Notes under the pieces: generated by a model | What the model was told of the DNA's origin: nothing | Databases searched by the model: none | The model's input: the letters and a program-made list of their open reading frames with translations, nothing else | Origin: Spironucleus salmonicida | Lineage: Eukaryota | NCBI RefSeq assembly: GCF_000497125.1 | Contig: NC_090601.1 | Location: forward strand, 434,001 to 498,000 | Length of the DNA: 64,000 bases | Direction of reading: 5' to 3' | Part shown: positions 4,184 through 58,431 of the stretch, one piece after another | Layout of the letters: each line of letters begins with the position of its first letter | How positions within the stretch are numbered: position 1 is the first letter of the stretch | Translations under genes and position numbers: made by a program

Positions 4184-4736
4184 TAATGTTTTTCATTAGA
4201 TGTATTCATTCTGTAAGAGAGAATTAATATAAAATATTTTTTAAAACTTTTAATTGAACAAAGATACAATGTAGCTATTCTAGAAAAATGGTTATTTGTA
4301 AGCTCACACATATAATATAATTATACGTGTATACTACCAAATAAAAGTAAAATTCAAAAAAAGATGAAGATAATCGTAGTTATCTAAAAAATTTGATACT
4401 CAATAGATCTTAGTTAGTAATTATTTAATAAAAGGAAATCTTAAGGCAAGAAATTATAATCAGTTTGAAAATACATCTCGAGCTATATCGTTCTCCAGCG
4501 CTGTCTAGCCAGTTCATTCCCACCGCCAAGGCTTCCGCGTGGGCCCATAGTATGCGCAACCGCTCCCAGAGCTTGCGCACACGCCCTGGACGGCAACGGG
4601 GTCTGGGTACTTCCGCGGTCTCGGGCCAAAGCGAAATGCCGTGTATTATATATGTAACTTAACATTGTACTTTTCAAAATTAAACCGCCGTTCTGACCAC
4701 TATTAAACCCAAAGCGGCGATACCCGTTCCCTCCAA

Positions 4737-5228
4737 ATGCAGTCCGAGTATGCCGGCTCGGCCACCCTGGACCGCCTCCAGAAGCAGGCGCGCGAGCAGA
4801 AGCTGCAGGCTGCCAAGGAGAGCGAGACCTCCCACCGGCAGGCGGTGACGCCGCAGCGCCAGGCCAAGGCCCATCCGGCGCCGAACGCCTACCTGCCCAA
4901 GAAGGCGCCCCTGCCCCAGGTCCGGATCAACCAGGCCCCGCGGCCCAAGTCGGTCTTCGACGTCGCCGATAACCACGTCCCGGGCCCCAACCGCTACGAC
5001 GCCTCCCTGCCGCGGCTGCAGCGCGCCACGAAGTTCCCGAACGCCGACCGCTTCCGCCTGGCCGAGGTGGAGGGGCGGCCCGCGGAGACAGCGAGCACAC
5101 CAAGCTGCATGTGCAGCCGGCCCTGCAGGATCAACGGCTCCGAGCGCCGGCGGCCCGTGAAGGTGACCTACCTGGCGAGCAAGGTGGCGCCGAACACGTA
5201 CCACATAAAGTGGAAGGGCTGGAAGTGA
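4737..5228 (+). CDS. SHIPPO/sperm-tail PG-rich repeat protein (ODF3-like), 163 aa
   Basis: PAPNAY, PGPNRY and APNTY repeats; C-rich leader; ends AAG-TGA. Confidence 0.75.
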   Translation: MQSEYAGSATLDRLQKQAREQKLQAAKESETSHRQAVTPQRQAKAHPAPNAYLPKKAPLPQVRINQAPRPKSVFDVADNHVPGPNRYDASLPRLQRATKFPNADRFRLAEVEGRPAETASTPSCMCSRPCRINGSERRRPVKVTYLASKVAPNTYHIKWKGWK

Positions 5229-5236
5229 GGAAGTCG

Positions 5237-5686
5237 TCACTGAATCTCGAGGCGCACGGCGTTGAAGATGTCCAGGATCATCCCCGTGTCCAGCTCGGTC
5301 TGCTGCGACCCGAGCAGCGCCCACATCAGCCCCTCCAGCTCGCCCCGCGTGAGGTCGATGCCGACGCTCTGGGCCAGCTCCGCGAGCCGGGCGGTGGTGA
5401 TGCGCGGCCGGCCCTCGTCGTTGGAGTTCTGCAGCAGCTCGCGCACGTTGTTGTAGTCCTTGTTCGAGAGCAGCACCGAGAACTCCTGGCAGAAGGCGAA
5501 GAAGTCCAGGAAGTCCATCTCCTCGTTCGGCCGCGACGTGATCGTGTTGAGCATCAGGTGCGGCGGCGGGAAGGCCCGGAAGAAGCGCGCGAAGATGTTC
5601 CGGACCTCCAGCGCGTCCAGGAAGCCGTTGCGGGAGGTGTCCACGAGCTCGAAGAGCCGGACGTACGTGTTGATGGAGGCCTGCAT
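5237..5686 (-). CDS. EF-hand protein (calmodulin/centrin-like, divergent), 149 aa
   Basis: EF loop DTSRNGFLDALE, MDFLDFF segment, calmodulin-like length. Confidence 0.75.
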   Translation of the reverse strand: MQASINTYVRLFELVDTSRNGFLDALEVRNIFARFFRAFPPPHLMLNTITSRPNEEMDFLDFFAFCQEFSVLLSNKDYNNVRELLQNSNDEGRPRITTARLAELAQSVGIDLTRGELEGLMWALLGSQQTELDTGMILDIFNAVRLEIQ

Positions 5687-5725
5687 TTTGCGGACTCTTA
5701 TATACCCAGGGTACAACTGCCCGAA

Positions 5726-6871
5726 ATGGACCCCGACGCCGCCCGCCGCTACCTCGCCAGCTACCCCTTCCTGGGGCTGCTGCTGCTCGACGCCTACCCG
5801 GCGGAGTACCCCGCCGTCATGGCCGCCTTCGACGCGGAGGCCCAGCTTTTCCTCGAGCGCCTGACCCCGGGGCAGGTGTCCCAGCTGCTATTCGGGGAGC
5901 ACGAGGGCGCCGTGCCAGCGCAGCTCCAGCGCTTCATGGACGACTCGGTCCTCCCGCGGCGGACTGCGCTCCCCAGGCACCCCGACCCCAAGGGCGCGCA
6001 GGTCGCCAGCATGGTGGCCGTCGTCCGCGAGCTGCTCCCCGCCGGCGCCTCCGTGCTCGACGCGGGGTGCGGGGTCGGCAAGCTGAGCCAGGCGCTGGAC
6101 GGGCTGGGGTGCTACTCGGTCCTGGGCGTGGACCGGGACGCGGCCCTGGTGGCGAGGGCGAGCGCGCTGGGCCTGCAGCACGCCTCCTTCGCGGTACGGG
6201 CGCTCGGGCCAGCGGGCCTCCCGGCGACCACCGCCCTCATCGCGCTGCACGGCTGCGGGGACTTCGGGGCCGACGTGCTGGACGGCGTGGAGAGCGCGCT
6301 GGTGCTCCAGGTGCCCTGCTGCTACCAGTCCATGCGCCACTTCCCCCGCAGCAGGGCGCTCGGCGGGCTCAGCTTCGAGGACCAGGCGCACCGGCGGGCC
6401 TTCCTGAACCTCGCGTGCGGGAGCTTCGGCATGGACGTGGGGCGGATCCTCGCCAAGCGCCTGCGCCGCGCCGCCATGCAGCCGCTGGTGGACTACTTCC
6501 GCGACCGCCACGGCCTGCAGCCCGGCCAGGCCATCTGCAAGCGGAGCCGGCGCGACGAGATCGGGACCTACCTGGCGGAGCAGGTGGGCGCGCTGAAGCG
6601 GAAGGCCGGGTGCGCGCGCCCCGCCGAGGCCATCGTGCGGGACGTCTACGGCGACTTCGGGGCGTTCTTCCGGCAGTTCTGCGCGGACAACCGCCAGCGG
6701 TACCTGGTGCAGATCTTCCTCAGCGGGGTGTGCGCCCGCACGGTGGAGCTCATCGCGATCACGGACCGGGCTGCACGGCTTCAGGAGCGCGGGTACCGGG
6801 TGCACACGCGGGAGCTGTGCGCGGAGGAGGTGACGCCGCGCAACGTGCTGCTGGTGGGCGAGCGGGAGTGA
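5726..6871 (+). CDS. SAM-dependent methyltransferase, METTL25/RRNAD1-like, 381 aa
   Basis: VLDAGCGVGKLS motif I, LHGCGD, VPCCY and C-terminal TPRN. True start is ATG 5726, not the ORF-track start at 5111. Confidence 0.8.
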   Translation: MDPDAARRYLASYPFLGLLLLDAYPAEYPAVMAAFDAEAQLFLERLTPGQVSQLLFGEHEGAVPAQLQRFMDDSVLPRRTALPRHPDPKGAQVASMVAVVRELLPAGASVLDAGCGVGKLSQALDGLGCYSVLGVDRDAALVARASALGLQHASFAVRALGPAGLPATTALIALHGCGDFGADVLDGVESALVLQVPCCYQSMRHFPRSRALGGLSFEDQAHRRAFLNLACGSFGMDVGRILAKRLRRAAMQPLVDYFRDRHGLQPGQAICKRSRRDEIGTYLAEQVGALKRKAGCARPAEAIVRDVYGDFGAFFRQFCADNRQRYLVQIFLSGVCARTVELIAITDRAARLQERGYRVHTRELCAEEVTPRNVLLVGERE

Positions 6872-6897
6872 GCGGGGTATCGCAGTGGGGGAAAGAA

Positions 6898-7378
6898 TCA
6901 GTCGGGGCAGCTGGCGTCGTCCGAGTCGTGCTCCTCGTCGGCCGCGTTCTGCGTGAGGAGGCAGCCAGGGGCCTCGGGGGCCGGGAGCCCGCGCATGAAG
7001 TCGTCCACATCGCCCGGGACGAACTCCTCCTCCTGCGGCAGGGCCTGGTTGATGGGCAGCTCCACCTCCTGCGGGGCGCCCAGCAGCACCGCCTGGAGCA
7101 CCTGCTCCTCGGTCTGCCTCGCCTCGTCCTTCTGGTCGTCGTAGTGCATGCTGGGAACCGCCTCCGCCTCCCCGCTGCTCTCGACCTCCTCCAGCTCAGG
7201 GGCGTCCGAGACCTCCTCGATCTCCATGATCTGCACGCCGACCCTGCCCTCGAAGAACTCGCGGCTCACGACCTGCACCTCGTTGTCAGCCCAGATGCGG
7301 CCTCTGCCCACACCGCACACGGCGCTGACGCGGCTCACCTTCTCCACGGCGTCGATCTCACCGGTGTCCTTAAAATGT
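6898..7378 (-). pseudogene. 5'-truncated duplicate of the DNAAF1 C-terminal acidic tail
   Basis: Identical to 17492-17972, but the LRR-coding 5' part is absent and an in-frame TGA lies just beyond the repeat edge. Confidence 0.8.
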
Positions 7379-7547
7379 ATAATAATGTTTCATACCAAAG
7401 TTTTTAATTTAAATGTTAACATAGATTTCATTATTAACTAGCGTATTTAATAAGATAAATACATTATCATATTTTATCTAGATATAATTGTAGATTTATC
7501 TTTAGTAAACGACGCACTTATCAAGCAAAAAATGAGTGAATGAAATG

Positions 7548-8216
7548 TCACTACAGTACTTTAACATCATTTTATATTAGCCATGATATGATTTATTAAG
7601 ATGCGCTGCTAGCATGAATTAGCTTGCGGATAAACGGCTGCGCAACGCAAATTACAACTATTTTAATGGCAAACTCTGCATGACAGAGCAGCTTCTTTTC
7701 GTTGATAATGTTAAGATTCTGTTTTATTGCACCTACTAAATTTTCGTAATTACCTAGAACTGGAAACTTAGTGAACTGCTGTACTAGCCGTTACGCGTTT
7801 CGAGTCGGGAAGATAACTCCTGATATCTAATTATGGAATAACGTATCGAGGGTGGAATATAGTGTCTAATACGATTCTATCGTCGAATTCACTAGCATAG
7901 ACCGTATCTTTAGATCTGGGACGAAATGAAAATCCACTGCTCGATTCTAACGCTGCTATTGTGCAAGCGCAATATAGTTTGAAAGTCTGATAAAGTCTAT
8001 ATGTGCGAAGGGTTGAACAGATAATAAAAGGATGTCGGGATTCTGTGTAGTTGTAGTGCCAGTTAGAGTTAGTTCGATGATCGACTCCATATCCATTTTG
8101 GATAACCACAATATAATATTAAATATCATAGTTTCATTAAAATTCGTATATTGCAGGATCACCAGGGGTTGTTTATCTATCTACTAGAGTTGCATGTTAC
8201 ATTTAACAGTTATCAT
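7548..8216 (-). CDS. Hypothetical protein, ~222 aa
   Basis: Open under table 6 from ATG 8216; ends TAG-TGA (AGTGA). Confidence 0.65.
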
Positions 8217-8441
8217 ATATTGTTATAATATATTTCTGAATTCAGCCCACTGTGCTTTCTATCTTGTGTTATATTAGCGAATATTTAAACCAAATCAATG
8301 CAGCCTAATGGATACACTGTTAACATCTAGGTATGGGAGCGTAATTTTCTGGTTGCGTCTCAATTGTAGGAACATAAATTACTACTATTTCTTAATCTAG
8401 TAACCATGCAATAGCCAGAAAAACGTCATTCGTGGGTATTG

Positions 8442-8984
8442 TCATAGAATGCCCTTCCATTTTGGGCTATACAGAGCTGGGCTACGCTCTGTTATTTCGT
8501 ATGATATAAACTTGGCCTTCCGCCGTTCACTTCTGCAGATCCGGATGTCTGCTGGCTGGTATTGGTCTTTGAGTGCCAAGAACTCCGGCTACTCTTTGAT
8601 CTTGCACATCTGGAACCTATCAGATTAACATATCTTGGGGGTCTTGCCAATAGATGGTAGCGAGAGGTTCGTGTACTAGCCTGGCCCTGGTGTAGTGATT
8701 TATTTATCCTCCTTACTTCTGTCATACGCATTGATGTGTTTGCCATTCTATGTGTGATGACGAATATGGTAGGTGTTAGGTGCTGGACTGTCAAAGTTAA
8801 GCTGCGACAGGAATGAGTATGACCGGTCGTCAGGTTGCACACGTGAGGTAAGGTGTGGAGGGAGGGGCTTTTTCTTGACTTCCGGCTTCTGAGGACGGAT
8901 AAGCTCCGCTATCTCCAGGAGCCCCTTTGCCTGAGCTAGGAGTCCAGGAATCTCCTTCCGCTTGATCACTGTTTCCAGCTGCAT
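8442..8984 (-). CDS. Second SHIPPO-repeat protein, 180 aa
   Basis: SPAPNTY, TPGPGQY and SPALY repeats; C-terminal KWKG shared with the 4737 protein. Confidence 0.75.
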
Positions 8985-9092
8985 TTTTGGCAGGATATGG
9001 AATTCATATATAGAGTGTGGGAAAATTCTTCATAGAAACGGAGTGCGTTCAATGACCTGGATCACCCGTCCTATCCTGGTAATAACGTTATC

Positions 9093-9548
9093 TCACATGC
9101 TGGTACTGGTCTCGCTCTCCCGGATCTCACTGCTACTGACCTTACGGCCGTTCTCCTCCACTACACCGCATATGTGCACCACCATCTCCACTAACCCCTT
9201 CTACCGTCTTAGCCGATTCAGCACCTTTGCACCGTCCTCGGTTTCCTTGCTCACAACGAGCTAACACTCTTCAAGCTCTAGCACTGGCCCCACAGGGTCG
9301 TTCAGTTCCACCACAGAAATATCTCCTGTTAATGGGCCCAGCCCATCCAGGAATTCCTACACGTTCTGGCACCGTGCCTCGAAGGGCTGGATAAACTTCG
9401 ACAGCGACTTCTTCTACACGTATGCTTGTGACATCACTCCAACGATGATCCTATCACCGCGTTATGCTACCTCTGCTACCTTCCTTAGTAGGGCATGGTG
9501 ACCTACGTGGAGACGGTCGAAAGTCCCGGCGGCGCAGATTGTTGGCAT
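9093..9548 (-). CDS. PPAT: Phosphopantetheine adenylyltransferase (eukaryote/archaeal-type, monofunctional), 151 aa
   Basis: GTFDRLHVGH (HxGH), DPVGP, VVSKETEDGAKVLN, KVSSSEIR. Missed by the standard-code ORF track. Confidence 0.9.
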
Positions 9549-9587
9549 TTCGAGAGAACTAAAACTATATATAATAATCCAAATCAG

Positions 9588-9848
9588 TCAGTAAGTTACA
9601 GGTTGGGTGCGAGTCTTGCCTCTGAAGCCCCTTGTACTAGGCTGGTACTTTCTGAACAGGTGCTACACATCGTAGTCGAAGCTGACGGCTGCCCGCCTGC
9701 TGTACGGGGAGTCCATCAGGACATAGGGCGTGTAGGTTTCCTCCATCTGGATTCCACGAAACACGTCGTACCTGAATGCATCGTCTATGTTTTTGGGTGT
9801 CTTTGGATCCTATAGCATCTTGAGCTTGGCCGAGCGTGAGAGCATCAT
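9588..9848 (-). CDS. Small hypothetical protein, 86 aa
   Basis: ATG preceded by TATAT and a C-rich tract; open to TGA under table 6. Confidence 0.55.
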
Positions 9849-10092
9849 TTTTAATTTGGGAGAGGTAGAGATATATCAGATACGTATGCACAAAATAACA
9901 TGATTCCTGAAAGAAAACTGTCCGTTGTTTATAATTATACAGCTTCTGTATGTCCAGTTTTTCCTTACCTGTTTCGAATAAACAAAACTGGTACTCAATC
10001 AGCAGCCTCTCCAACATATCTAGGTGGTTGCGGAGGTATAAAATTTTGGGAACGACCCTTTATATATCCTGGCCGTACACCTCACTCCCAAA

Positions 10093-11400
10093 ATGCAGAA
10101 TCCGCTCATCGTCGAGGCCCATGCACAGCTGGGGACAGGAAGCTTCCAGGATGCAGTGAAGCTGGCGCTAAATGCCCTCCAGTACCCAGGGATCACCAGG
10201 GACGAGGAGTTCGCGCTCTATCTCATCATCATCGAGGCCTACACGGCCGCTCGGGAGTACGCGCTCGCGGAGGCCAACGTGCTGCAGGTTCAGCAGGTCC
10301 TCCCAACACATTCCGGGTTGCGGAAGCAGTTCTACCTCGACGCGGCCAGGGTGTTCGTGGCCCTCGACAAGCCGCTGCAGGCTTTGCAGTTCCTCGACGA
10401 CTACCAGTTCGACGGGCTCCCCATGGAATCCGTGTTCTACTCGCTAAGCGCGGCGGCCCAGCTCAGGCTGCGGAACTACCCCGATGCGGCCGTGTCCCTG
10501 CAGAAGTGCGACTCGGTGGAGGCGCAGGCGCAGCTCTTCGCCGTCCAAAACGACGTACCCGGACTCGAGGGCGCGGCCGAGGTGCTGCTGCAGAACGACC
10601 CCAACTTCACCGGCCTGACGCAGATCTGCGCCAACCTCGCGGTGATGTCCGGCGAGTCGCAGAAGGCACTCTACTACGGCCAGAAGTGCCGGGAGTTCGC
10701 CGACATCTGGGGAAACTTCGACGGCGCCGAGCTCCAGCGCCAGGTCCAGTTCGTGGTAGAGGGCGAGTGCGCTGGCCCGGTGGAGGGCATTGTGGGGGCA
10801 TTCGTGCTGGTCAGCCGCCGTGAGTACCTCCAGGCCCTGGAGCACATCCAGACCCTGCGGGGTGGCAGCACCCATGAGAAAGCGCTGCTGGCCCTGTCCG
10901 CCCTCTGCTCTGCCGGGCTGGGGGATGCGCCGGCGATCATGACGAAGCTGGACAAGGTCGGGACGCAGACTTCCTTTGCCATGCACGTGACCGGAGTCTG
11001 CTTCCGCCTGCTCGGGAACTACGGCCGCGCCAAGCGGTGCTTCGCCGACGCCCTTAAGACGGTGCCTCCCCGGAGCCTCTTCCGCGCCGAGGTGCTGACG
11101 AGCCTGGGGGAGGTGAAGTGGGTCACCGACGACCTCCAGGGCGCGGTGCGGGACCTGGTGGCCGCGAAGGCGCTCGTGCTCGCCAACTGCGGCAGGGGTG
11201 GGTTCTACGGCCGGGTGTGCGCGCTGCTGGGCCAGATATACGACGTGCTCTACGTCCAGAGCGGCAACAAGGTGATCCGGGGCGAGGCCGTGCTGGTCGT
11301 GGAGGACGCCATCACGGGGCTGGAGGAGCGTGGCCTCGCGGAGGGGGCGGTGTGCAGGGAGCTGCGCGAGCTGCGGGGCAGAATACGCGCCAGGAGGTGA
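10093..11400 (+). CDS. TPR/alpha-solenoid repeat protein, 435 aa
   Basis: Helical TPR-like patterns such as GVCFRLLGNYGRAKRCFADAL; leader CTCACTCCCAAAATG. Confidence 0.75.
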   Translation: MQNPLIVEAHAQLGTGSFQDAVKLALNALQYPGITRDEEFALYLIIIEAYTAAREYALAEANVLQVQQVLPTHSGLRKQFYLDAARVFVALDKPLQALQFLDDYQFDGLPMESVFYSLSAAAQLRLRNYPDAAVSLQKCDSVEAQAQLFAVQNDVPGLEGAAEVLLQNDPNFTGLTQICANLAVMSGESQKALYYGQKCREFADIWGNFDGAELQRQVQFVVEGECAGPVEGIVGAFVLVSRREYLQALEHIQTLRGGSTHEKALLALSALCSAGLGDAPAIMTKLDKVGTQTSFAMHVTGVCFRLLGNYGRAKRCFADALKTVPPRSLFRAEVLTSLGEVKWVTDDLQGAVRDLVAAKALVLANCGRGGFYGRVCALLGQIYDVLYVQSGNKVIRGEAVLVVEDAITGLEERGLAEGAVCRELRELRGRIRARR

Positions 11401-11412
11401 GAATTGGTTAGG

Positions 11413-11859
11413 TCACTCGGGGTTGAACAGCTGTTTGAACATGACCGCCACGTCGAAGAACTCCACGTCGTCCATGAAGTCCTTGATGTCCTGGCTGGGA
11501 CCGCCGACGATCCTGCCGACCACGAGCTGCGTGAGCCTCTTTTCGAGCTCTGGCATGTTCTTACCGTGGTGCTTGATGAGGCACCTGAAGCTGTCGTCCA
11601 CGCCCATATCGGTGATCCTGTCCTGCCCAGGGTGCCGAGAGATGTAGTCAGTCACGTCAAAGACCACGCCGCCCATCACTATGTGCTGCCTGCCGTTCTG
11701 GTTGAGGTCGGCCGCTGTCATATCCTTGATGCTCATTCCGTTTGTATACTTAGCGAGGAGTTATCGAAGATAATATTGCGGTTTATCGTTACGCGAAGGT
11801 ACCGGAATCTAAACTGGACGCCAAGAAGGGCTCGCCGTTCTAGGAGTATTGGGTAGCAT
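11413..11859 (-). CDS. Cytochrome b5-like heme-binding protein, 148 aa (107 aa if started at 11736)
   Basis: GVVFDVTDYISRHPG with a second His in KHHG; frame extends upstream to ATG 11859 under table 6. Confidence 0.85.
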
Positions 11860-12186
11860 GCGGGATGGATCTGCCGGTGCGGGGCGGGGTGTCAGGGTCG
11901 GGCGGTTTCATGGGGCGCGTCCCGTTTACTTTTGTGGTAAAACTTACTATGAACGTTGGCAGTATAAAAGATAACGATTTTACAGATCACGGATACACTA
12001 TTTAACTCGATACATGATAAGATATTGCGAGCACTATTGAAAACTCATCTTAATGATGTTAAATCTCAGAACATGAATCAACTTGTTTATCATAATAAAT
12101 AATTTATTGTATACATATTTACGAAGAATATTAATATTTTATTAGTAATATTATATAATATTAGAATTAGGTATTTCCCCAATAGT

Positions 12187-16691: not shown

Positions 16692-17972
16692 ATGTCGAAT
16701 GAATATGATATGACTCCTAAGCGTCTACGTGAAATTTGTAAAGAGCGTGGACATTATCAAACTCCTCATTTAAATGATATATTGTATTTCCATTATAAAG
16801 GGTTCAGAAAAATTTAAAATTTAGAGCCATATTATGGATGCAAATCACTTTGGCTTGAAGGTAATGGTGTTGTTAAAATTGAAGGTTTAGATACACTTGT
16901 AAATTTATCATGCTTATATCTTTAAGAAAATCTAATTCAAAAAATAGAGAATCTTGAGTAACTTTCACTTCGCTAAATTAACTTGTCAAATAATTCAATT
17001 TAAGTAGTAGAAAACATTTCGCAGTTAACAAATTTAGAATCTTTATATCTTTGCTCAAACAGGATTACTCATTCTACTTCTCTTCGTGGTCTTATTGGAT
17101 TAGACAATCTATCTGTTCTTGATTTATCGAAAAATTAGATTGATGATGAGGAATTTTTATCAGTATTAGAGTAACTTCCATCACTAAGGGTACTTACTTT
17201 TAGTGGGAATCCTATTTCAAAAACTATGAGAATGTATAGAAAACGTATTATCCATGCATGTCAATAGCTTACCTACTTAGATGATCGTCCAGTATTCAAT
17301 GATGAAAGACGTGCGACCGCAGCCTTCTTTTCTGGTGGTGCTGAAGCTGAAATAGACGAGAGAAGGCTTATTCTTGCAGAAAAAAGGGCGGAAGAGCGGG
17401 CCTAATTCGCTGGAATGTAAGCATTCCTAAGCGGTAAGACTCGTGAAGAATCAATAGTATTAAGTGAAAAAGCTAGATAGAAGGTAATCTAACATTTTAA
17501 GGACACCGGTGAGATCGACGCCGTGGAGAAGGTGAGCCGCGTCAGCGCCGTGTGCGGTGTGGGCAGAGGCCGCATCTGGGCTGACAACGAGGTGCAGGTC
17601 GTGAGCCGCGAGTTCTTCGAGGGCAGGGTCGGCGTGCAGATCATGGAGATCGAGGAGGTCTCGGACGCCCCTGAGCTGGAGGAGGTCGAGAGCAGCGGGG
17701 AGGCGGAGGCGGTTCCCAGCATGCACTACGACGACCAGAAGGACGAGGCGAGGCAGACCGAGGAGCAGGTGCTCCAGGCGGTGCTGCTGGGCGCCCCGCA
17801 GGAGGTGGAGCTGCCCATCAACCAGGCCCTGCCGCAGGAGGAGGAGTTCGTCCCGGGCGATGTGGACGACTTCATGCGCGGGCTCCCGGCCCCCGAGGCC
17901 CCTGGCTGCCTCCTCACGCAGAACGCGGCCGACGAGGAGCACGACTCGGACGACGCCAGCTGCCCCGACTGA
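16692..17972 (+). CDS. DNAAF1: Dynein axonemal assembly factor 1 (LRRC50/ODA7), 426 aa
   Basis: YQTPHLNDILYFHYKGF N-terminus, SDS22-like LRRs, LRRcap YRKRII...LTYLDDRPV. Confidence 0.92.
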
Positions 17973-17998
17973 TTCTTTCCCCCACTGCGATACCCCGC

Positions 17999-19144
17999 TC
18001 ACTCCCGCTCGCCCACCAGCAGCACGTTGCGCGGCGTCACCTCCTCCGCGCACAGCTCCCGCGTGTGCACCCGGTACCCGCGCTCCTGAAGCCGTGCAGC
18101 CCGGTCCGTGATCGCGATGAGCTCCACCGTGCGGGCGCACACCCCGCTGAGGAAGATCTGCACCAGGTACCGCTGGCGGTTGTCCGCGCAGAACTGCCGG
18201 AAGAACGCCCCGAAGTCGCCGTAGACGTCCCGCACGATGGCCTCGGCGGGGCGCGCGCACCCGGCCTTCCGCTTCAGCGCGCCCACCTGCTCCGCCAGGT
18301 AGGTCCCGATCTCGTCGCGCCGGCTCCGCTTGCAGATGGCCTGGCCGGGCTGCAGGCCGTGGCGGTCGCGGAAGTAGTCCACCAGCGGCTGCATGGCGGC
18401 GCGGCGCAGGCGCTTGGCGAGGATCCGCCCCACGTCCATGCCGAAGCTCCCGCACGCGAGGTTCAGGAAGGCCCGCCGGTGCGCCTGGTCCTCGAAGCTG
18501 AGCCCGCCGAGCGCCCTGCTGCGGGGGAAGTGGCGCATGGACTGGTAGCAGCAGGGCACCTGGAGCACCAGCGCGCTCTCCACGCCGTCCAGCACGTCGG
18601 CCCCGAAGTCCCCGCAGCCGTGCAGCGCGATGAGGGCGGTGGTCGCCGGGAGGCCCGCTGGCCCGAGCGCCCGTACCGCGAAGGAGGCGTGCTGCAGGCC
18701 CAGCGCGCTCGCCCTCGCCACCAGGGCCGCGTCCCGGTCCACGCCCAGGACCGAGTAGCACCCCAGCCCGTCCAGCGCCTGGCTCAGCTTGCCGACCCCG
18801 CACCCCGCGTCGAGCACGGAGGCGCCGGCGGGGAGCAGCTCGCGGACGACGGCCACCATGCTGGCGACCTGCGCGCCCTTGGGGTCGGGGTGCCTGGGGA
18901 GCGCAGTCCGCCGCGGGAGGACCGAGTCGTCCATGAAGCGCTGGAGCTGCGCTGGCACGGCGCCCTCGTGCTCCCCGAAGAGCAGCTGGGACACCTGCCC
19001 CGGGGTCAGGCGCTCGAGGAAAAGCTGGGCCTCCGCGTCGAAGGCGGCCATGACGGCGGGGTACTCCGCCGGGTAGGCGTCGAGCAGCAGCAGCCCCAGG
19101 AAGGGGTAGCTGGCGAGGTAGCGGCGGGCGGCGTCGGGGTCCAT
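17999..19144 (-). CDS. METTL25/RRNAD1-like methyltransferase, copy B
   Basis: Same protein as 5726-6871. Confidence 0.8.
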   Translation of the reverse strand: MDPDAARRYLASYPFLGLLLLDAYPAEYPAVMAAFDAEAQLFLERLTPGQVSQLLFGEHEGAVPAQLQRFMDDSVLPRRTALPRHPDPKGAQVASMVAVVRELLPAGASVLDAGCGVGKLSQALDGLGCYSVLGVDRDAALVARASALGLQHASFAVRALGPAGLPATTALIALHGCGDFGADVLDGVESALVLQVPCCYQSMRHFPRSRALGGLSFEDQAHRRAFLNLACGSFGMDVGRILAKRLRRAAMQPLVDYFRDRHGLQPGQAICKRSRRDEIGTYLAEQVGALKRKAGCARPAEAIVRDVYGDFGAFFRQFCADNRQRYLVQIFLSGVCARTVELIAITDRAARLQERGYRVHTRELCAEEVTPRNVLLVGERE

Positions 19145-19183
19145 TTCGGGCAGTTGTACCCTGGGTATATAAGAGTCCGCAAA

Positions 19184-19633
19184 ATGCAGGCCTCCATCAA
19201 CACGTACGTCCGGCTCTTCGAGCTCGTGGACACCTCCCGCAACGGCTTCCTGGACGCGCTGGAGGTCCGGAACATCTTCGCGCGCTTCTTCCGGGCCTTC
19301 CCGCCGCCGCACCTGATGCTCAACACGATCACGTCGCGGCCGAACGAGGAGATGGACTTCCTGGACTTCTTCGCCTTCTGCCAGGAGTTCTCGGTGCTGC
19401 TCTCGAACAAGGACTACAACAACGTGCGCGAGCTGCTGCAGAACTCCAACGACGAGGGCCGGCCGCGCATCACCACCGCCCGGCTCGCGGAGCTGGCCCA
19501 GAGCGTCGGCATCGACCTCACGCGGGGCGAGCTGGAGGGGCTGATGTGGGCGCTGCTCGGGTCGCAGCAGACCGAGCTGGACACGGGGATGATCCTGGAC
19601 ATCTTCAACGCCGTGCGCCTCGAGATTCAGTGA
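19184..19633 (+). CDS. EF-hand protein, copy B
   Basis: Same protein as 5237-5686. Confidence 0.75.
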   Translation: MQASINTYVRLFELVDTSRNGFLDALEVRNIFARFFRAFPPPHLMLNTITSRPNEEMDFLDFFAFCQEFSVLLSNKDYNNVRELLQNSNDEGRPRITTARLAELAQSVGIDLTRGELEGLMWALLGSQQTELDTGMILDIFNAVRLEIQ

Positions 19634-19641
19634 CGACTTCC

Positions 19642-20133
19642 TCACTTCCAGCCCTTCCACTTTATGTGGTACGTGTTCGGCGCCACCTTGCTCGCCAGGT
19701 AGGTCACCTTCACGGGCCGCCGGCGCTCGGAGCCGTTGATCCTGCAGGGCCGGCTGCACATGCAGCTTGGTGTGCTCGCTGTCTCCGCGGGCCGCCCCTC
19801 CACCTCGGCCAGGCGGAAGCGGTCGGCGTTCGGGAACTTCGTGGCGCGCTGCAGCCGCGGCAGGGAGGCGTCGTAGCGGTTGGGGCCCGGGACGTGGTTA
19901 TCGGCGACGTCGAAGACCGACTTGGGCCGCGGGGCCTGGTTGATCCGGACCTGGGGCAGGGGCGCCTTCTTGGGCAGGTAGGCGTTCGGCGCCGGATGGG
20001 CCTTGGCCTGGCGCTGCGGCGTCACCGCCTGCCGGTGGGAGGTCTCGCTCTCCTTGGCAGCCTGCAGCTTCTGCTCGCGCGCCTGCTTCTGGAGGCGGTC
20101 CAGGGTGGCCGAGCCGGCATACTCGGACTGCAT
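19642..20133 (-). CDS. SHIPPO-repeat protein, copy B
   Basis: Same protein as 4737-5228. Confidence 0.75.
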   Translation of the reverse strand: MQSEYAGSATLDRLQKQAREQKLQAAKESETSHRQAVTPQRQAKAHPAPNAYLPKKAPLPQVRINQAPRPKSVFDVADNHVPGPNRYDASLPRLQRATKFPNADRFRLAEVEGRPAETASTPSCMCSRPCRINGSERRRPVKVTYLASKVAPNTYHIKWKGWK

Positions 20134-20228
20134 TTGGAGGGAACGGGTATCGCCGCTTTGGGTTTAATAGTGGTCAGAACGGCGGTTTAATTTTGAAAAG
20201 TACAATGTTAAGTTACATATATAATACA

Positions 20229-20393
20229 CGGCATTTCGCTTTGGCCCGAGACCGCGGAAGTACCCAGACCCCGTTGCCGTCGAGGGCGTGTGCGCAAGCT
20301 CTGGGAGCGGTTGCGCATACTATGGGCCCACGCGGAAGCCTTGGCGGTGGGAATGAACTGGCTAGACAGCGCTGGAGAACGATATAGCGCTGG
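20229..20393 (+). ncRNA. Candidate structured non-coding RNA, family unassigned (partial second copy at 4482-4641, minus strand)
   Basis: Follows a TATATAAT box; three predicted stems: 20288-20297/20311-20320, 20327-20331/20347-20351, 20367-20373/20386-20392. Confidence 0.35.
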
Positions 20394-20715: not shown

Positions 20716-21450
20716 ATGCTTCCTCAGACAAATATTAAAAACTTTCGATACAATATATTGAAAAAGGCATCCTATATTTTAGAATATAAACTAGTGTATA
20801 ACACACCAAAAAACAAAGCGTATGAGGAATGTAAAATATAAATTTAATCTGCTTCATTATCTAATAGAAAAAATTATTTGAGAGATAACTACTCTTTTAA
20901 TTCTTCAAGTTGTAATTTAGATAATTAAACTATTACGTTTTTATCTAACGAAGAGTAATTGCATATAGACTAAACTAATACTATAATTCAATAAGGAAAT
21001 ATAAATTTATTGAAAAAATTACATTTTGATTAAAGTATTAATATAAATTATACTATAATATTTTCTGAATTAAATTATGTATAAAGAAACTAATTGATAA
21101 ATGATATTATTAAGATAAATATGTAATAACCAGATAAAACATTGAAAGTTAATAAAACGTTGCTGAATAATATCATCTTTAATAGTAACAGGTTGGAAAA
21201 GCAATCTATATTAATGAATAAACAAAATCTAAAATAAAAGTAGTAAAATAATTTACTAAAATAGTAAATGTAAGAATACGAATTACTGTTTGGTATAAAT
21301 GGGTCTACACTGCAGTAATATCTAGCTTTTGTGAAATACTAGAACTCTAATGGTTAACATCTATAATTAAATGTTAATAATTTACCTCCTAGTTATGTAT
21401 TAATACCTATAACAAACGACGCACTTATCAAGCAAAAAATGAGTGAATGA
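20716..21450 (+). CDS. Asn/Gln-rich hypothetical protein, 244 aa; last 12 codons lie inside repeat R2
   Basis: Open under table 6; ends ATG AGT GAA TGA. Confidence 0.55.
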
Positions 21451-21454
21451 AATG

Positions 21455-22123
21455 TCACTACAGTACTTTAACATCATTCTATATTAGCCATGATATGATT
21501 TATTAAGATGCGCTGCTAGCATGAATTAGCTTGCGGATAAACGGCTGCGCAACGCAAATTACAACTATTTTAATGGCAAACTCTGCATGACAGAGCAGCT
21601 TCTTTTCGTTGATAATGTTAAGATTCTGTTTTATTGCACCTACTAAATTTTCGTAATTACCTAGAACTGGAAACTTAGTGAACTGCTGTACTAGCCGTTA
21701 CGCGTTTCGAGTCGGGAAGATAACTCCTGATATCTAATTATGGAATAACGTATCGAGGGTGGAATATAGTGTCTAATACGATTCTATCGTCGAATTCACT
21801 AGCATAGACCGTATCTTTAGATCTGGGACGAAATGAAAATCCACTGCTCGATTCTAACGCTGCTATTGTGCAAGCGCAATATAGTTTGAAAGTCTGATAA
21901 AGTCTATATGTGCGAAGGGTTGAACAGATAATAAAAGGATGTCGGGATTCTGTGTAGTTGTAGTGCCAGTTAGAGTTAGTTCGATGATCGACTCCATATC
22001 CATTTTGGATAACCACAATATAATATTAAATATCATAGTTTCATTAAAATTCGTATATTGCAGGATCACCAGGGGTTGTTTATCTATCTACTAGAGTTGC
22101 ATGTTACATTTAACAGTTATCAT
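21455..22123 (-). CDS. Hypothetical protein, copy B of 7548-8216
   Basis: Offset 13907; frame intact. Confidence 0.65.
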
Positions 22124-22348
22124 ATATTGTTATAATATATTTCTGAATTCAGCCCACTGTGCTTTCTATCTTGTGTTATATTAGCGAATATTTAAACCAA
22201 ATCAATGCAGCCTAATGGATACACTGTTAACATCTAGGTATGGGAGCGTAATTTTCTGGTTGCGTCTCAATTGTAGGAACATAAATTACTACTATTTCTT
22301 AATCTAGTAACCATGCAATAGCCAGAAAAACGTCATTCGTGGGTATTG

Positions 22349-22891
22349 TCATAGAATGCCCTTCCATTTTGGGCTATACAGAGCTGGGCTACGCTCTGTT
22401 ATTTCGTATGATATAAACTTGGCCTTCCGCCGTTCTCTTCTGCAGATCCGGATGTCTGCTGGCTGGTATTGGTCTTTGAGTGCCAAGAACTCCGGCTACT
22501 CTTTGATCTTGCACATCTGGAACCTATCAGATTAACATATCTTGGGGGTCTTGCCAATAGATGGTAGCGAGAGGTTCGTGTACTAGCCTGGCCCTGGTGT
22601 AGTGATTTATTTATCCTCCTTACTTCTGTCATACGCATTGATGTGTTGGCCATTCTATGTGTGATGACGAATATGGTAGGTGTTAGGTGCTGGACTGTCA
22701 AAGTTAAGCTGCGACAGGAATGAGTATGACCGGTCGTCAGGTTGCACACGTGAGGTAAGGTGTGGAGGGAGGGGCTTTTTCTTGACTTCCGGCTTCTGAG
22801 GACGGATAAGCTCCGCTATCTCCAGGAGCCCCTTTGCCTGAGCTAGGAGTCCAGGAATCTCCTTCCGCTTGATCACTGTTTCCAGCTGCAT
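22349..22891 (-). CDS. SHIPPO-repeat protein, copy B of 8442-8984
   Basis: Offset 13907; frame intact. Confidence 0.75.
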
Positions 22892-22999
22892 TTTTGGCAG
22901 GATATGGAATTCATATATAGAGTGTGGGAAAATTCTTCATAGAAACGGAGTGCGTTCAATGACCTGGATCACCCGTCCTATCCTGGTAATAACGTTATC

Positions 23000-23455
23000 T
23001 CACATGCTGGTACTGGTCTCGCTCTCCCGGATCTCACTGCTACTGACCTTACGGCCGTTCTCCTCCACTACACCGCATATGTGCACCACCATCTCCACTA
23101 ACCCCTTCTACCGTCTTAGCCGATTCAGCACCTTTGCACCGTCCTCGGTTTCCTTGCTCACAACGAGCTAACACTCTTCAAGCTCTAGCACTGGCCCCAC
23201 AGGGTCGTTCAGTTCCACCACAGAAATATCTCCTGTTAATGGGCCCAGCCCATCCAGGAATTCCTACACGTTCTGGCACCGTGCCTCGAAGGGCTGGATA
23301 AACTTCGACAGCGACTTCTTCTACACGTATGCTTGTGACATCACTCCAACGATGATCCTATCACCGCGTTATGCTACCTCTGCTACCTTCCTTAGTAGGG
23401 CATGGTGACCTACGTGGAGACGGTCAAAAGTCCCGGCGGCGCAGATTGTTGGCAT
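23000..23455 (-). CDS. PPAT: Phosphopantetheine adenylyltransferase, copy B
   Basis: Same motifs as 9093-9548. Confidence 0.9.
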
Positions 23456-23494
23456 TTCGAGAGAACTAAAACTATATATAATAATCCAAATCAG

Positions 23495-23755
23495 TCAGTA
23501 AGTTACAGGTTGGGTGCGAGTCTTGCCTCTGAAGCCCCTTGTACTAGGCTGGTACTTTCTGAACAGGTGCTACACATCGTAGTCGAAGCTGACGGCTGCC
23601 CGCCTGCTGTACGGGGAGTGCATCAGGACATAGGGCGTGTAGGTTTCCTCCATCTGGATTCCACGAAACACGTCGTACCTGAATGCATCGTCTATGTTTT
23701 TGGGTGTCTTTGGATCCTATAGCATCTTGAGCTTGGCCGAGCGTGAGAGCATCAT
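23495..23755 (-). CDS. Small hypothetical protein, copy B of 9588-9848
   Basis: Offset 13907. Confidence 0.55.
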
Positions 23756-23999
23756 TTTTAATTTGGGAGAGGTAGAGATATATCAGATACGTATGCACAA
23801 AATAACATGATTCCTGAAAGAAAACTGTCCGTTGTTTATAATTATACAGCTTCTGTATGTCCAGTTTTTCCTTACCTGTTTCGAATAAACAAAACTGGTA
23901 CTCAATCAACAGCCTCTCCAACATATCTAGGTGGTTGCGGAGGTATAAAATTTTGGGAACGACCCTTTATATATCCTGGCCGTACACCTCACTCCCAAA

Positions 24000-25307
24000 A
24001 TGCAGAATCCGCTCATCGTCGAGGCCCATGCACAGCTGGGGACAGGAAGCTTCCAGGATGCAGTGAAGCTGGCGCTAAATGCCCTCCAGTACCCAGGGAT
24101 CACCAGGGACGAGGAGTTCGCGCTCTATCTCATCATCATCGAGGCCTACACGGCCGCTCGGGAGTACGCGCTCGCGGAGGCCAACGTGCTGCAGGTTCAG
24201 CAGGTCCTCCCAACACATTCCGGGTTGCGGAAGCAGTTCTACCTCGACGCGGCCAGGGTGTTCGTGGCCCTCGACAAGCCGCTGCAGGCTTTGCAGTTCC
24301 TCGACGACTACCAGTTCGACGGGCTCCCCATGGAATCCGTGTTCTACTCGCTAAGCGCGGCGGCCCAGCTCAGGCTGCGGAACTACCCCGATGCGGCCGT
24401 GTCCCTGCAGAAGTGCGACTCGGTGGAGGCGCAGGCGCAGCTCTTCGCCGTCCAAAACGACGTACCCGGACTCGAGGGCGCGGCCGAGGTGCTGCTGCAG
24501 AACGACCCCAACTTCACCGGCCTGACGCAGATCTGCGCCAACCTCGCGGTGATGTCCGGCGAGTCGCAGAAGGCACTCTACTACGGCCAGAAGTGCCGGG
24601 AGTTCGCCGACATCTGGGGAAACTTCGACGGCGCCGAGCTCCAGCGCCAGGTCCAGTTCGTGGTAGAGGGCGAGTGCGCTGGCCCGGTGGAGGGCATTGT
24701 GGGGGCATTCGTGCTGGTCAGCCGCCGTGAGTACCTCCAGGCCCTGGAGCACATCCAGACCCTGCGGGGTGGCAGCACCCATGAGAAAGCGCTGCTGGCC
24801 CTGTCCGCCCTCTGCTCTGCCGGGCTGGGGGATGCGCCGGCGACCATGACGAAGCTGGACAAGGTCGGGACGCAGACTTCCTTTGCCATGCACGTGACCG
24901 GAGTCTGCTTCCGCCTGCTCGGGAACTACGGCCGCGCCAAGCGGTGCTTCGCCGACGCCCTTAAGACGGTGCCTCCCCGGAGCCTCTTCCGCGCCGAGGT
25001 GCTGACGAGCCTGGGGGAGGTGAAGTGGGTCACCGACGACCTCCAGGGCGCGGTGCGGGACCTGGTGGCCGCGAAGGCGCTCGTGCTCGCCAACTGCGGC
25101 AGGGGTGGGTTCTACGGCCGGGTGTGCGCGCTGCTGGGCCAGATATACGACGTGCTCTACGTCCTGAGCGGCAACAAGGTGATCCGGGGTGAGGCCGTGC
25201 TGGTCGTGGAGGACGCCATCACGGGGCTGGAGGAGCGTGGCCTCGCGGAGGGGGCGGTGTGCAGGGAGCTGCGCGAGCTGCGGGGCAGAATACGCGCCAG
25301 GAGGTGA
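24000..25307 (+). CDS. TPR protein, copy B
   Basis: Differs from 10093-11400 at two residues (I/T, Q/L). Confidence 0.75.
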   Translation: MQNPLIVEAHAQLGTGSFQDAVKLALNALQYPGITRDEEFALYLIIIEAYTAAREYALAEANVLQVQQVLPTHSGLRKQFYLDAARVFVALDKPLQALQFLDDYQFDGLPMESVFYSLSAAAQLRLRNYPDAAVSLQKCDSVEAQAQLFAVQNDVPGLEGAAEVLLQNDPNFTGLTQICANLAVMSGESQKALYYGQKCREFADIWGNFDGAELQRQVQFVVEGECAGPVEGIVGAFVLVSRREYLQALEHIQTLRGGSTHEKALLALSALCSAGLGDAPATMTKLDKVGTQTSFAMHVTGVCFRLLGNYGRAKRCFADALKTVPPRSLFRAEVLTSLGEVKWVTDDLQGAVRDLVAAKALVLANCGRGGFYGRVCALLGQIYDVLYVLSGNKVIRGEAVLVVEDAITGLEERGLAEGAVCRELRELRGRIRARR

Positions 25308-25319
25308 GAATTGGTTAGG

Positions 25320-25766
25320 TCACTCGGGGTTGAACATCTGTTTGAACATGACCGCCACGTCGAAGAACTCCACGTCGTCCATGAAGTCCTTGATGTCCTG
25401 GCTGGGACCGCCGACGATCCTGCCGACCACGAGCTGCGTGAGCCTCTTCTCGAGCTCTGGCATGTTCTTGCCGTGGTGCTTGATGAGGCACCTGAAGCTG
25501 TCGTCCACGCCCATATCGGTGATCCTGTCCTGCCCAGGGTGCCGAGAGATGTAGTCAGTCACGTCAAAGACCACGCCGCCCATCACTATGTGCTGCCTGC
25601 CGTTCTGGTTGAGGTCGGCCGCTGTCATATCCTTGATGCTCATTCCGTTTGTATACTTAGCGAGGAGTTATCGAAGATAATATTGCGGTTTATCGTTACG
25701 CGAAGGTACCGGAATCTAAACTGGACGCCAAGAAGGGCTCGCCGTTCTAGGAGTATTGGGTAGCAT
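25320..25766 (-). CDS. Cytochrome b5-like protein, copy B
   Basis: One L/M difference near the C-terminus versus copy A. Confidence 0.85.
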
Positions 25767-26637
25767 GCGGGATGGATCTGCCGGTGCGGGGCGGGGTGTC
25801 AGGGTCGGGCGGTTTCATGGGGCGCGTCCCGTTTAGTTTTGTGGTAAAATGTAGTACTGAATTTTTTACTGGAATAGATTTTTGATTATATAACTGGTAT
25901 TAATAACTATACGTTTAGGCATATGGTATATTCAATATTGGTGTTTGCATATTCTAAACTAAATTATTATTAAGTTCATACTAATAGTTTTCACATCTTA
26001 TTATTGATATAAAATGTAACTTCATTACTAATAAATAATATATTTAAATTTTTCTATTAATTTACTTTTCAAGATTGTATTAATTTTAAATTAAAAATTA
26101 CCTTATTTCTCACATATTATAATATATTTTAAATTATCCTCCTGTATTATAATTTTTTATAAAATTAAATATATACTAGATACTGTTCGAATTCTAAAAA
26201 TATAACTTAGTTTAATTAATAGCATTCAAAAATATATATTTAGCATAAATTTAGTTCATTAACAGTTTATAACCTACTAACAAAGATATATAACAATTGA
26301 TTATCTGTTATTCTATCATTATCTCTTGGTTTGTTCAATAAAAATATATTTATTAGTTAATTTTTATATTAAAATACTAATTCTGTATGAATTGATTTAA
26401 TAATATAATACATTGCGACTATTAAATTTTTATTTTAGAATAGTATAAAATCAGAACTACAAATCAATATGTGTTTCGTCATTAATATACCTTTAAATAT
26501 CTAATACTGATTTATATTTTTACTGTATTTAGATTAAAATACTATACATAACTATAAAGTCACTTAATCACTTAAGTGAAAAAACGAATTATCCTATATG
26601 AATATTATGTTCATATAAATATTATTAACGTTAAATA

Positions 26638-34049: not shown

Positions 34050-34541
34050 ATGTAAGATAAAATAGTAGCGAAACTTTACTCTTAAGTTCCTAGTAAATTA
34101 TCAAAATTGAATGAAAGAACATAATCATCTACTTTTTCTGTTACAAATTCTAAGTTCAGCGGTGTGTATGCGATCTACACGCCAAAGGTTGGTGTGGACA
34201 AGTTTCTTGACAATGCTAGCTGCATGCCCATGTACAACCAGGAGAATTTCAAGCTGGATAAGTTTGAAACGAAAGACGTGTCAGAAGGCGTTAAGCTGAA
34301 TACGCTGAGCTTGTCAGGACGGCATACCGTGGAGCTCAGGCTGATTACCGTTGCCTCCCAACTAGACGGTAAGCGGGCGGTCATCTAGTACTGCGAGGAG
34401 AACTTGAACGGTCATATTTTTGTTTAGGACGGTGAGAGCGTCCGCTTCTGGTCCCATTTCGACGTTCCTGGCGCCCCGGCGATGATATTGAACCTGGCAG
34501 CGAAGAAGAAGGCGCTGCAGCTGGCCATGCTGGACGAGTGA
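34050..34541 (+). CDS. Hypothetical protein, 163 aa (possibly START/SRPBCC-like fold)
   Basis: ATG 34050 to GAG-TGA; first 30 codons lie outside repeat R3. Fold guess is based only on the C-terminal DVPGAPAMILNLAA helix. Confidence 0.65.
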
Positions 34542-34715
34542 GCGAGGGGTGTTTTACTGACATTATTACCGTTTCACTGCTGCACGAGACTACCAGGATA
34601 CCTTAGATGCACTAGGCCCGATAACTGCGACCTCTGATTCAAATTTACCTCCGGTACCTTAAAAGGTCGCACCGCTATCCGCTCCATATACCGCCGCAGT
34701 GCACCAGCGACCACC

Positions 34716-35369
34716 TCAGAATACGTCGCCGTTCAGTATCAGCTTTCGGGCCATGTCCTCCTCGCTGATGTCCTCCTCCAGAAACTTCATCACCACATCC
34801 TCCTTGTAAATCCTGCCCAGGCCATCCTTTTAGTCCCTAATCTTCAAATCCAGCGCCTGGTTTTGTATGTCGAGCTTCTCACTCCCCAGCTGGACCAGCT
34901 GCCTGTTATCCATCTTCGCCATCTGAATCTGCTGCGCCACCTGCCGCTCCACCTCGGACAGCGCGCCAGCCTGGCTCAGCTCTTTGTACTTCTTCACTGT
35001 CTGCGCGCTAGTGACTCGGGACTCGGCCTCAAAGACCGTCTGCCTCAATACTTTCATCTCGGCGTCGCTCTTCCGCTAAATAGCCAGCATCGCGAACTTA
35101 TCGTGCTCCGCGAGCTCGGTTATGGCCTTTACCGCCTTCTACTTTAGCTGAATTTTCCGCTGCTGGTGCTGCGTCATCAGAATCTCAATCTGGTCTGTGA
35201 GGCTGAGACCCTGAGTGGCGCCGTATCGCGTTAGAACGTTTTGAACCTGGTGCATCAGCTGGCCTTGCTGCTTTAGCTGCTACTTGAGCTGCCTGTTCTC
35301 CTGGTCCAGCTCCTCGAGCAGCTCGCGCTGGGTCTGGTTCAGGAGCTGTAGATTGGTCGAATTTAGCAT
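34716..35369 (-). CDS. Coiled-coil protein, 217 aa
   Basis: CTTCCTCCAAAATG start context; Q/E/L-rich heptads. Confidence 0.75.
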
Positions 35370-35411
35370 TTTGGAGGAAGTTGGTATGCGTATAATAAAT
35401 ATACGCACGAA

Positions 35412-36326: not shown

Positions 36327-36378
36327 TTAATACTAAAGAATACCTTCTACATTTCGGTTTTTCTGGAAAAGTATTTCC

Positions 36379-37860: not shown

Positions 37861-37891
37861 ACGGCAATATTGCGTGAACATAACATCCCCC

Positions 37892-47427: not shown

Positions 47428-47450
47428 AAATCGAAGTATCACTTAAAACC

Positions 47451-53030: not shown

Positions 53031-53035
53031 TTTTT

Positions 53036-58400: not shown

Positions 58401-58431
58401 GGGGGATGTTATGTTCACGCAATATTGCCGT

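Follow-up and report, generated by a model that had tools for sequence, protein, structure and literature searches.

An abrupt change in GC content within a DNAAF1-like gene of Spironucleus salmonicida coincides with a repeat edge and may reflect GC-biased conversion between duplicates

Introduction

How can a single reading frame hold two codon regimes? This question is raised by a DNAAF1/LRRC50-like gene in a 64,000-nucleotide stretch of Spironucleus salmonicida DNA, which was analysed as a whole and is called the window below. The gene is AT-rich at its head and GC-rich at its tail. Since one protein, one promoter and one level of expression go together with two codon regimes, it serves as an internal control.

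Abrupt GC shifts are not new to this species. Sharp shifts from 30% to 70% GC have been reported, and their cause is left open in the accessible text of that report (PMC1805757). In the accessible parts of the papers on the Spironucleus GC mosaic, genes with a high GC3s are described as lineage-specific and located in GC-rich regions (PMC1805757, PMC2874811, PMC9509377). For 14 genes with a GC3s >75%, all S. barkhanus orthologues are reported below 75% (PMC2874811, accessible part), and duplicated regions are reported at 44.7% versus 30.7% GC in S. salmonicida (PMC9509377, accessible part). In their accessible text, these papers give a correlation or leave the cause open, and gene conversion is named once, for surface-protein families. 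They report no compositional switch that falls within a gene at the edge of a repeat and name no biased conversion, unlike the present case. The accessible parts of PMC3916229, PMC7641422 and PMC11787283 are silent on what produced the GC islands. In the literature available as full text, beyond which lie most subscription papers, theses and supplements, we found no gBGC account of GC-rich Spironucleus duplicates.

An earlier, sequence-only reading of the window suggested that its repeats may be old islands of GC-biased gene conversion. The analysis presented here partly supports that reading. The switch in DNAAF1 is probably best explained by GC-biased interlocus conversion between duplicates, an explanation that does not extend to every GC-rich island. 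It would tie the published, unexplained GC shifts and extreme-GC3 genes of S. salmonicida to a definite process.

The switch within DNAAF1

The genetic code was taken as table 6, with TAA and TAG encoding Gln, throughout the window. Under this code the frame at 16692-17972 is open and reads 12 TAA/TAG codons as Gln, the last of which is codon 267 (17490-17492). The exact protein is present in a public protein collection. It contains the Pfam domains LRR_4, LRR_9 and LRR_8, and its matches to proteins named DNAAF1 have E values of about 1e-65 to 1e-55. Its LRR repeats, its conserved C-terminal cap and its best named matches, which are DNAAF1, together identify it as a putative DNAAF1/LRRC50. 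The main features are listed in Table 1.

Table 1. Genes, repeats and GC-rich islands in the window, with positions counted from its first letter.
Feature	Position	Strand	Description
R1 derived arm	4482..7378		Inverted; 2 mismatches in 2897 bp
R2 copy a	7507..11942		Direct repeat; four-fold GC gradient, 0.33 (left end) to 0.89 (TPR gene)
DNAAF1/LRRC50-like gene	16692..17972	+	Table 6, 426 aa; intact and native over its full length
DNAAF1 head	16692..17491	+	AT-rich, single-copy; GC3s 0.20, four-fold GC 0.13, Gln TAA/TAG 12/16
R1 parent arm	17492..20388		Four-fold GC 460/478; contains DNAAF1 tail, methyltransferase-like gene 17999-19144 (-), EF-hand gene 19184-19633 (+), 163-aa gene 19642-20133 (-)
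DNAAF1 tail	17492..17972	+	GC-rich, inside R1; GC3s 0.94, Gln CAG 10/10
R2 copy b	21414..25849		13 differences in 4436 relative to copy a
R3 parent arm	34140..40269		Four-fold GC 478/624; genes cut at both edges
Eroded homology outside R3 edge	40291..40330	-	24/40 bases match 55983-56022 after a 21-bp offset
CCDC39/46489-gene island	46590..48041		Counter-example; converging gene ends; CCDC39-tail four-fold GC 78/92
R4	52485..53727		ABC-gene tail and 222-aa gene 53036-53704; partner outside the window; four-fold GC 119/139
R3 derived arm	56023..62152		Inverted; 21 differences in 6130

The maximum-likelihood change-point in GC3s fell at 17499 (2dLL 251; 95% set 17496-17511), 7 bp inside the edge of repeat R1 at 17492. 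GC-ending codons numbered 52/263 before this point and 145/153 after it, a step from 0.20 to 0.95, which confirms the earlier description of an AT-rich gene with TAA/TAG Gln up to about 17491 and G/C-ending codons beyond. The use of TAA/TAG for Gln dropped from 12/16 in the head to 0/10 in the tail (Fisher p=0.0002). At a finer scale, the first two codons within R1 still end in T, and GC-ending codons were less frequent among the first 30 codons of the tail (23/29) than in the remainder (122/126; p=0.003). The last 260 bp of the head showed a slight rise in GC (24/86 vs 28/175; p=0.03).

The closest homologues of the product are diplomonad proteins, with orthologues matching at 48-57% over 77-80%. 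In an alignment of nine diplomonad sequences, invariant residues run past the junction to residue 330, and the tail keeps F269, T272, G273, D276, W296, V301, S305, R312 and P327-E330. By this alignment, the tail is native DNAAF1 sequence; the DNAAF1 locus is accordingly the parent, and the arm at 4482-7378 the derived copy.

It might be argued that the GC-rich blocks are foreign, i.e., introgressed or transferred, possibly from a donor with the standard code, or that they are an assembly chimera. The lack of TAA/TAG among the Gln codons of R1 (0/47) fits such an origin. However, the alignment of the tail with diplomonad orthologues is continuous over the junction, which excludes lateral transfer or a chimeric tail for DNAAF1 and supports the earlier doubt about lateral transfer. 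Furthermore, GC3 forms a continuum from 0.3 to 0.99 and is graded inside repeats, and TAA/TAG codons are retained for Gln in R2 (21/76) and R3 (17/117). In addition, 95-99% of the words sampled from 16000-21500 were found in four DNA runs, and contigs confirm R3. We consider a foreign or chimeric origin highly improbable. The case also cautions against reading GC content or missing TAA/TAG Gln in hexamitids as evidence of lateral transfer, contamination or a standard-code origin.

Near-identical repeats and their edges

Repeats were found by self-BLAST of the window. R1, R2 and R3 are all gap-free, and their arms are 99.66-99.93% identical over 2.9-6.1 kb. The two arms of R1 lie 13 kb apart on the same chromosome. 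In the derived arm, the headless DNAAF1 tail forms a 109-aa ORF (6898-7227, minus strand) and adjoins AT-rich intergenic DNA. The edges of R2 are intergenic. The genes that cross the edges of the R3 parent arm, the 34050 gene and an MIF4G-domain gene (37892-40342), are both whole there. In the sequencing contigs the R3 duplication is real: the derived arm has about double depth, and the flanks of the other arm appear as loose ends at 56023 and 62152.

Some further features of the repeats were noted. R1 and R2 alternate along the window, R1 in inverted orientation with respect to R2, and the gap between them measures 128 bp in one place and 1025 bp in the other. An inversion of 7379-17491 by recombination between the R1 arms could leave the sequence at the DNAAF1 frame junction unbroken. 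The far end of R1 (20134-20388; 255 bp) has a GC content of 0.54, and a short plus-strand ORF ends just beyond its edge. This far end had no match in Rfam; the window as a whole had none at the gathering threshold and one chance match, at 20432-20500. Similar ends (APNTYHI / SPKWKG-like) are shared by two genes, one of 163 aa in R1 (4737-5228) and one of 180 aa in R2 (8442-8984), which may be distant paralogues; neither had a match in Pfam.

The coincidence of switch and edge is not restricted to DNAAF1. In the 34050 gene, where a milder version had been pointed out at the R3 edge, GC3s changed from 3/33 to 87/124 at 34152 (95% set 34143-34158), 12 bp inside the edge at 34140. In total, all three genes that are cut cleanly by a near-identical repeat, namely DNAAF1, the 34050 gene and an ABC gene described below, switch at the repeat edge, and the change-point test that the sequence-only reading had called for placed all three switches at most 15 bp away. 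Change-points in raw GC fell at most 20 bp from 9 of the 12 edges in the window, where edges bordered by intergenic DNA are weak evidence.

Within R2, four-fold GC was 0.33, 0.47 and 0.55 in the first three genes versus 0.89 in the TPR gene, in line with the earlier caveat that the start of this repeat is only moderately GC-rich. The left 2.5 kb holds 6 differences between the copies at a four-fold GC of 0.33-0.55, and the right 1.9 kb holds 7 at up to 0.89. The two halves are thus equally homogeneous and unequally GC-rich, which counts against a simple conversion reading. A one-to-one relation between repeats and GC therefore fails, as the left part of R2 is far less GC-rich than the right, and a 97% identical duplicate elsewhere in the window (see last section) is only mildly raised.

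A shift of bases, not of codons

Four-fold GC in R2 was 360/538, between the higher values of R1 and R3 (Table 1) and those on the AT side, which amounted to 121/1057 for the four genes richest in AT, or 260/1588 when eight segments were pooled. The baseline of 0.11 used below refers to these four lowest genes; the eight AT-side segments give 0.16. C and G were about equally frequent at the four-fold sites of R1. The share of Gln codons that have C in first position tracked GC3s (rho 0.95; 28 of the 30 segments, namely those with at least five Gln). Similarly, Leu CTR/TTR was 53/0 in R1 vs 65/247 in AT-rich segments, and Arg CGR/AGR was 33/7 vs 14/99. The AT-rich pool for Leu, Arg and Gln leaves out the CCDC39 tail and the 46489 gene, which are GC-rich and unpartnered, and includes PMCA, the SPB4 tail and the 26638 gene, which were assumed to be single-copy. 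Intergenic GC was 0.49-0.62 within R1 vs 0.15-0.25 outside.

Hence, the force acts on bases rather than on codons. Since Leu, Arg, four-fold and intergenic sites shift alike, the loss of TAA/TAG is a by-product, another synonymous T-to-C change. The earlier suggestion that reassigned codons are purged as a separate effect was not borne out, as Leu TTR and Arg AGR fall likewise. A shift of amino acids towards those with GC-rich codons was non-significant in comparison with two distant orthologues (p=0.19 and 0.72).

Selection on codon usage or expression offers another explanation, for which the low Nc' of high-GC3s genes could be cited (Andersson et al., PMC1805757, accessible part). However, the switch occurs within a single reading frame, the intergenic DNA and the headless copy share the shift, and the intergenic shift contradicts codon selection. 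Moreover, the accessible part of the same paper puts highly expressed genes at a GC3s near 0.4. That selection wrote the switch is scarcely credible, and the earlier dismissal of expression level as its cause agrees with a shift that reaches four-fold sites, the first positions of Leu, Arg and Gln, and intergenic DNA.

Age of the repeats and signs of conversion

Raising four-fold GC from 0.11 to 0.96 requires a change at about 96% of the A/T four-fold sites. Such a change is impossible within the 0.07% divergence of the arms; therefore, either the arms were kept alike or GC-richness predated the duplication.

Traces of an older duplication were sought beyond the repeat edges. At the R3 edge 40269/56023, the flanks still match (Table 1; p=0.0025 vs shuffles, p=0.002 by local alignment). 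GC-ending codons in this eroded stretch numbered 12/22, and raw GC changes 56 bp beyond the edge of identity. We read the stretch as a probable former part of the tract, severed by an indel and now decaying; indels that end conversion tracts are described in the accessible part of PMC3924837. As homology continues in eroded form past the indel, the R3 duplication is probably older than the divergence of its core. Residual homology beyond the edge was absent at 5 of the 6 edges examined, including that in DNAAF1, so that the inferred age of R1 rests on its composition. A third copy, about 90% identical, of the 5' part of the MIF4G-domain gene (55897-56653) was also seen in the contigs, with an 84-base skip at 56467-56552.

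The differences between copies lay at most 100 bp from an edge in 6 of 36 cases, where 1.6 were expected (p=0.005), and in 5 of 35 (p=0.015) after removal of a difference 4 bp from an end. This enrichment depends on the size of the edge zone (p=0.20 at 300 bp), which was picked after seeing the data. Clustering of the differences was non-significant (p=0.27 and 0.33). Of the 36 differences, 28 were of the W/S type; unpolarised, the G/C allele was in the first-listed copy in 12 and in the second in 16. The notion of old, converted repeats thus finds support in the eroded homology of R3 and the differences near edges, and none in the five blank edges and the unclustered differences.

GC islands and the contig test

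Four further in-gene switches lack a partner in the window: in the ABC gene (52470), CCDC39 (48041), the 30243 gene (31131) and SPB4 (14050). The islands of the latter two span 14050-14900 in the SPB4-like helicase and 30243-31131 in an 860-aa gene, which has a second bump at about 32200-32500. For the eight stretches tested, the search for partners in the window returned only short low-complexity matches (blastn with word size 7, tblastn with code 6). The SPB4 and 30243-gene islands fall in single-member protein clusters, which speaks weakly against a current partner.

Partners elsewhere in the genome had been predicted for all four before the contigs were examined. The contig test covered 42300-62299 at ≥90% identity, using three DNA runs of one sample and one presumed RNA run, with R3 as a control that behaved as expected. 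At the ABC island, R4 in Table 1, each of the three DNA runs has contig breaks at 52513-52544 and 53698-53727. Run X4 carries a foreign flank at 52485, within the 95% set of the ABC change-point (52446-52488), and a depth of 20 vs 9-11; run X2 has two other letters. Depth was doubled in X4 only, and not in X1 or X2. As predicted, the ABC island has a partner, with an edge at most 15 bp from the switch, a conclusion that these contigs support moderately.

The CCDC39 island behaved differently from the prediction. Neither this island nor a bump at 49300-49700 had a partner at ≥90% identity, and an unbroken 9267-bp contig spans them in X1. Depth was flat and the island single-copy in all three DNA runs, and the breaks in X2 (47726) and X4 (48301-48417) did not coincide. 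Among the loose ends listed, none lay at the edges of the island, and no truncated copy of the CCDC39 protein was found among 3949 candidates. GC excess is therefore not confined to partnered sequence at ≥90% identity. The equation of repeats with GC islands holds for the three cut genes, all of which switch at the edge, but breaks down at the CCDC39 island, which equals R3 in GC and yet is single-copy in the contigs. This exception counts against the claim that all islands are repeat-conversion tracts and leaves R1 untouched.

The islands also show a strand skew. At four-fold sites of the plus strand, C prevailed on the left and G on the right within a single gene in CCDC39 (p=0.02) and SPB4 (p=0.024). 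The same skew was weaker across the different genes of R1 (p=0.03) and R2 (p=0.015), and R3 had none (p=0.77). Counts over 46489-48500 were 46/16 on the left and 5/14 on the right shoulder. Together with the R2 gradient, the skew suggests that the GC drive may centre on local initiation sites, with the repeat acting as template and the end of homology clipping the island.

These observations bear on an alternative order of events, in which GC islands came first, through allelic biased repair at single-copy break/repair hotspots, and the duplications are recent. The hotspots would also spawn duplications (0.07-0.3% divergence), and the repeat would be a by-product or would sharpen an existing island. 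The single-copy CCDC39 island fits this order, and so do the C-left/G-right skew expected of islands that grow outward from a centre, the GC gradient of R2 and the slight shoulder in the DNAAF1 head. However, breakpoints would need to have fallen, in three genes, at most 15 bp from a change in GC that was already present. At R1, moreover, the overall step from 0.20 to 0.95 is far steeper than the unpartnered steps (0.35 to 0.78, 0.30 to 0.57 and 0.37 to 0.72), and the eroded homology past the R3 indel suggests that this duplication is older than the divergence of its core. Just as well, an unpartnered island may once have been a repeat whose partner has disappeared. Overall, we consider it unlikely that the islands preceded the duplications.

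Proposed mechanism and strength of the GC drive

Under interlocus conversion, R1 would be an old segmental duplication whose breakpoint lies in DNAAF1 at codon 267/268. The parent gene would have stayed whole, while the second arm received a headless tail. The arms would then have served as mutual templates for repair, which would keep them 99.9% identical. If mismatches in the heteroduplexes were resolved to G or C more often, free sites, i.e., third positions, the first positions of Leu, Arg and Gln codons, and intergenic bases, would drift to G/C. The DNAAF1 head, without an ectopic partner, would remain near the AT-rich level of the genome, and the edge would be sharp because strand exchange stops where homology ends. 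We infer in this way the age of R1, the role of conversion as homogeniser and the GC bias of repair.

GC-biased conversion itself is a well-known process; its strength here is unusual. In its accessible part, the study of the mammalian pairs BMP8A/B, DDX19A/B and TUBG1/2 (Carson & Scherer 2009, PMC2720389) describes mosaic concerted evolution, in which, as here, part of a gene is homogenised and GC at third positions and in non-coding DNA is raised in the converted part only. Unlike in those pairs, the DNAAF1 copy is a headless fragment in a multi-gene block, and its step from 0.20 to 0.95 is sharp to ~10 bp. Primate X palindromes likewise have inverted arms >99% identical with GC above that of their flanks, and former arm sequence is proposed there to be GC-intermediate, a parallel to the R3 edge (Jackson et al. 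2021, PMC8981503, accessible part). The accessible figures for primate arms are 46% vs 41% GC, an equilibrium of 60.9% vs 39.9%, a bias of 0.70 and odds raised 2.3-fold. In R1, by contrast, the odds shift is about 130-198 (four-fold GC 0.96 vs 0.11-0.16); furthermore, the direct repeat R2 is affected too, and arms measure 3-6 kb. Non-allelic conversion between human duplicates has a reported GC bias of 67.3% and a far smaller effect, at 48.9% vs 39.6% GC (10.1101/135152, accessible part).

We calculated that a bias of 0.67-0.70 between two copies would raise a baseline of 0.11 to 0.21-0.23 only. The level of R1 requires a two-copy bias >0.99, a bias of 0.70 compounded about six times, or B of about 5. 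Since a bias of 0.67-0.70 between two copies falls short of 0.96, either the bias was nearly total or it was compounded over 4-8 copies per cell or in a recombining population. Diplomonads have two diploid nuclei (PMC9509377, accessible part). In a biased Moran process with the same bias and baseline, 8 copies reached 0.95-0.98 and 4 copies 0.53-0.62, figures that presuppose unbiased or slower allelic homogenisation and, being calculated from an assumed model, lend that model no support.

The shortfall of two-copy bias has also been weighed in favour of a different source of GC, namely unbiased conversion that homogenises the arms and a local GC-biased mutation, such as error-prone synthesis during ectopic repair, that enriches them. 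The strand-asymmetric distribution of C and G might likewise come more easily from synthesis or damage of single-stranded DNA than from symmetric resolution of mismatches. However, biased mutation predicts faster divergence of the arms, yet the arms are most alike in the repeat with the highest GC (2 differences in 2897 bp), and there is no direct evidence of such a polymerase here. In the literature on Spironucleus repair-gene inventories, nothing relevant appeared among the matches listed. We therefore regard a mutational source as very unlikely, and GC-biased conversion remains the preferred reading of the DNAAF1 switch.

A wider reading can be offered tentatively: that the GC mosaic of S. 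salmonicida, for which an explanation has been wanting since 2007, was written by recombinational repair, with a modest bias compounded over 4-8 copies per cell. On the same model, and just as doubtfully, the effective GC drive might be about two orders of magnitude above that of primates. If so, templates would be exchanged frequently between homologues and nuclei, or sex would be cryptic; any local duplication could alter codon usage in one half of a functional gene; and single-copy islands would mark either the loss of a partner or a hotspot of this repair. A shift of this size sets limits on the rate of repair-template exchange in a binucleate protist of debated sexuality, and DNAAF1 and the 36 marked arm differences offer places for base-precise tests.

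More divergent duplicates in the contigs

The product of the gene at 41969-43264 in the window is 428/431 and 420/431 identical to proteins named Spironucleus salmonicida. In the contigs, its duplicate differs at 29 of 1135 letters, an identity of about 97%, and the partner protein lies on another contig. Four-fold GC in this gene was 0.30, i.e., mildly raised. Conversion between human duplicates is reported to slow as copies diverge (10.1101/135152, accessible part), and the 97% duplicate suggests likewise. The duplicated stretch, 41969-43434, contains this BPI-like gene (named after a cluster member) and reaches the start of a deoxyhypusine-synthase-like gene.

A joint 53727-62299 to the opposite strand, along with loose ends at 62206, was seen in two runs. 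This suggests another duplicated block that starts at the 3' end of an AAA-ATPase gene, where GC3 is low (0.26), and perhaps adjoins the second copy of R4.
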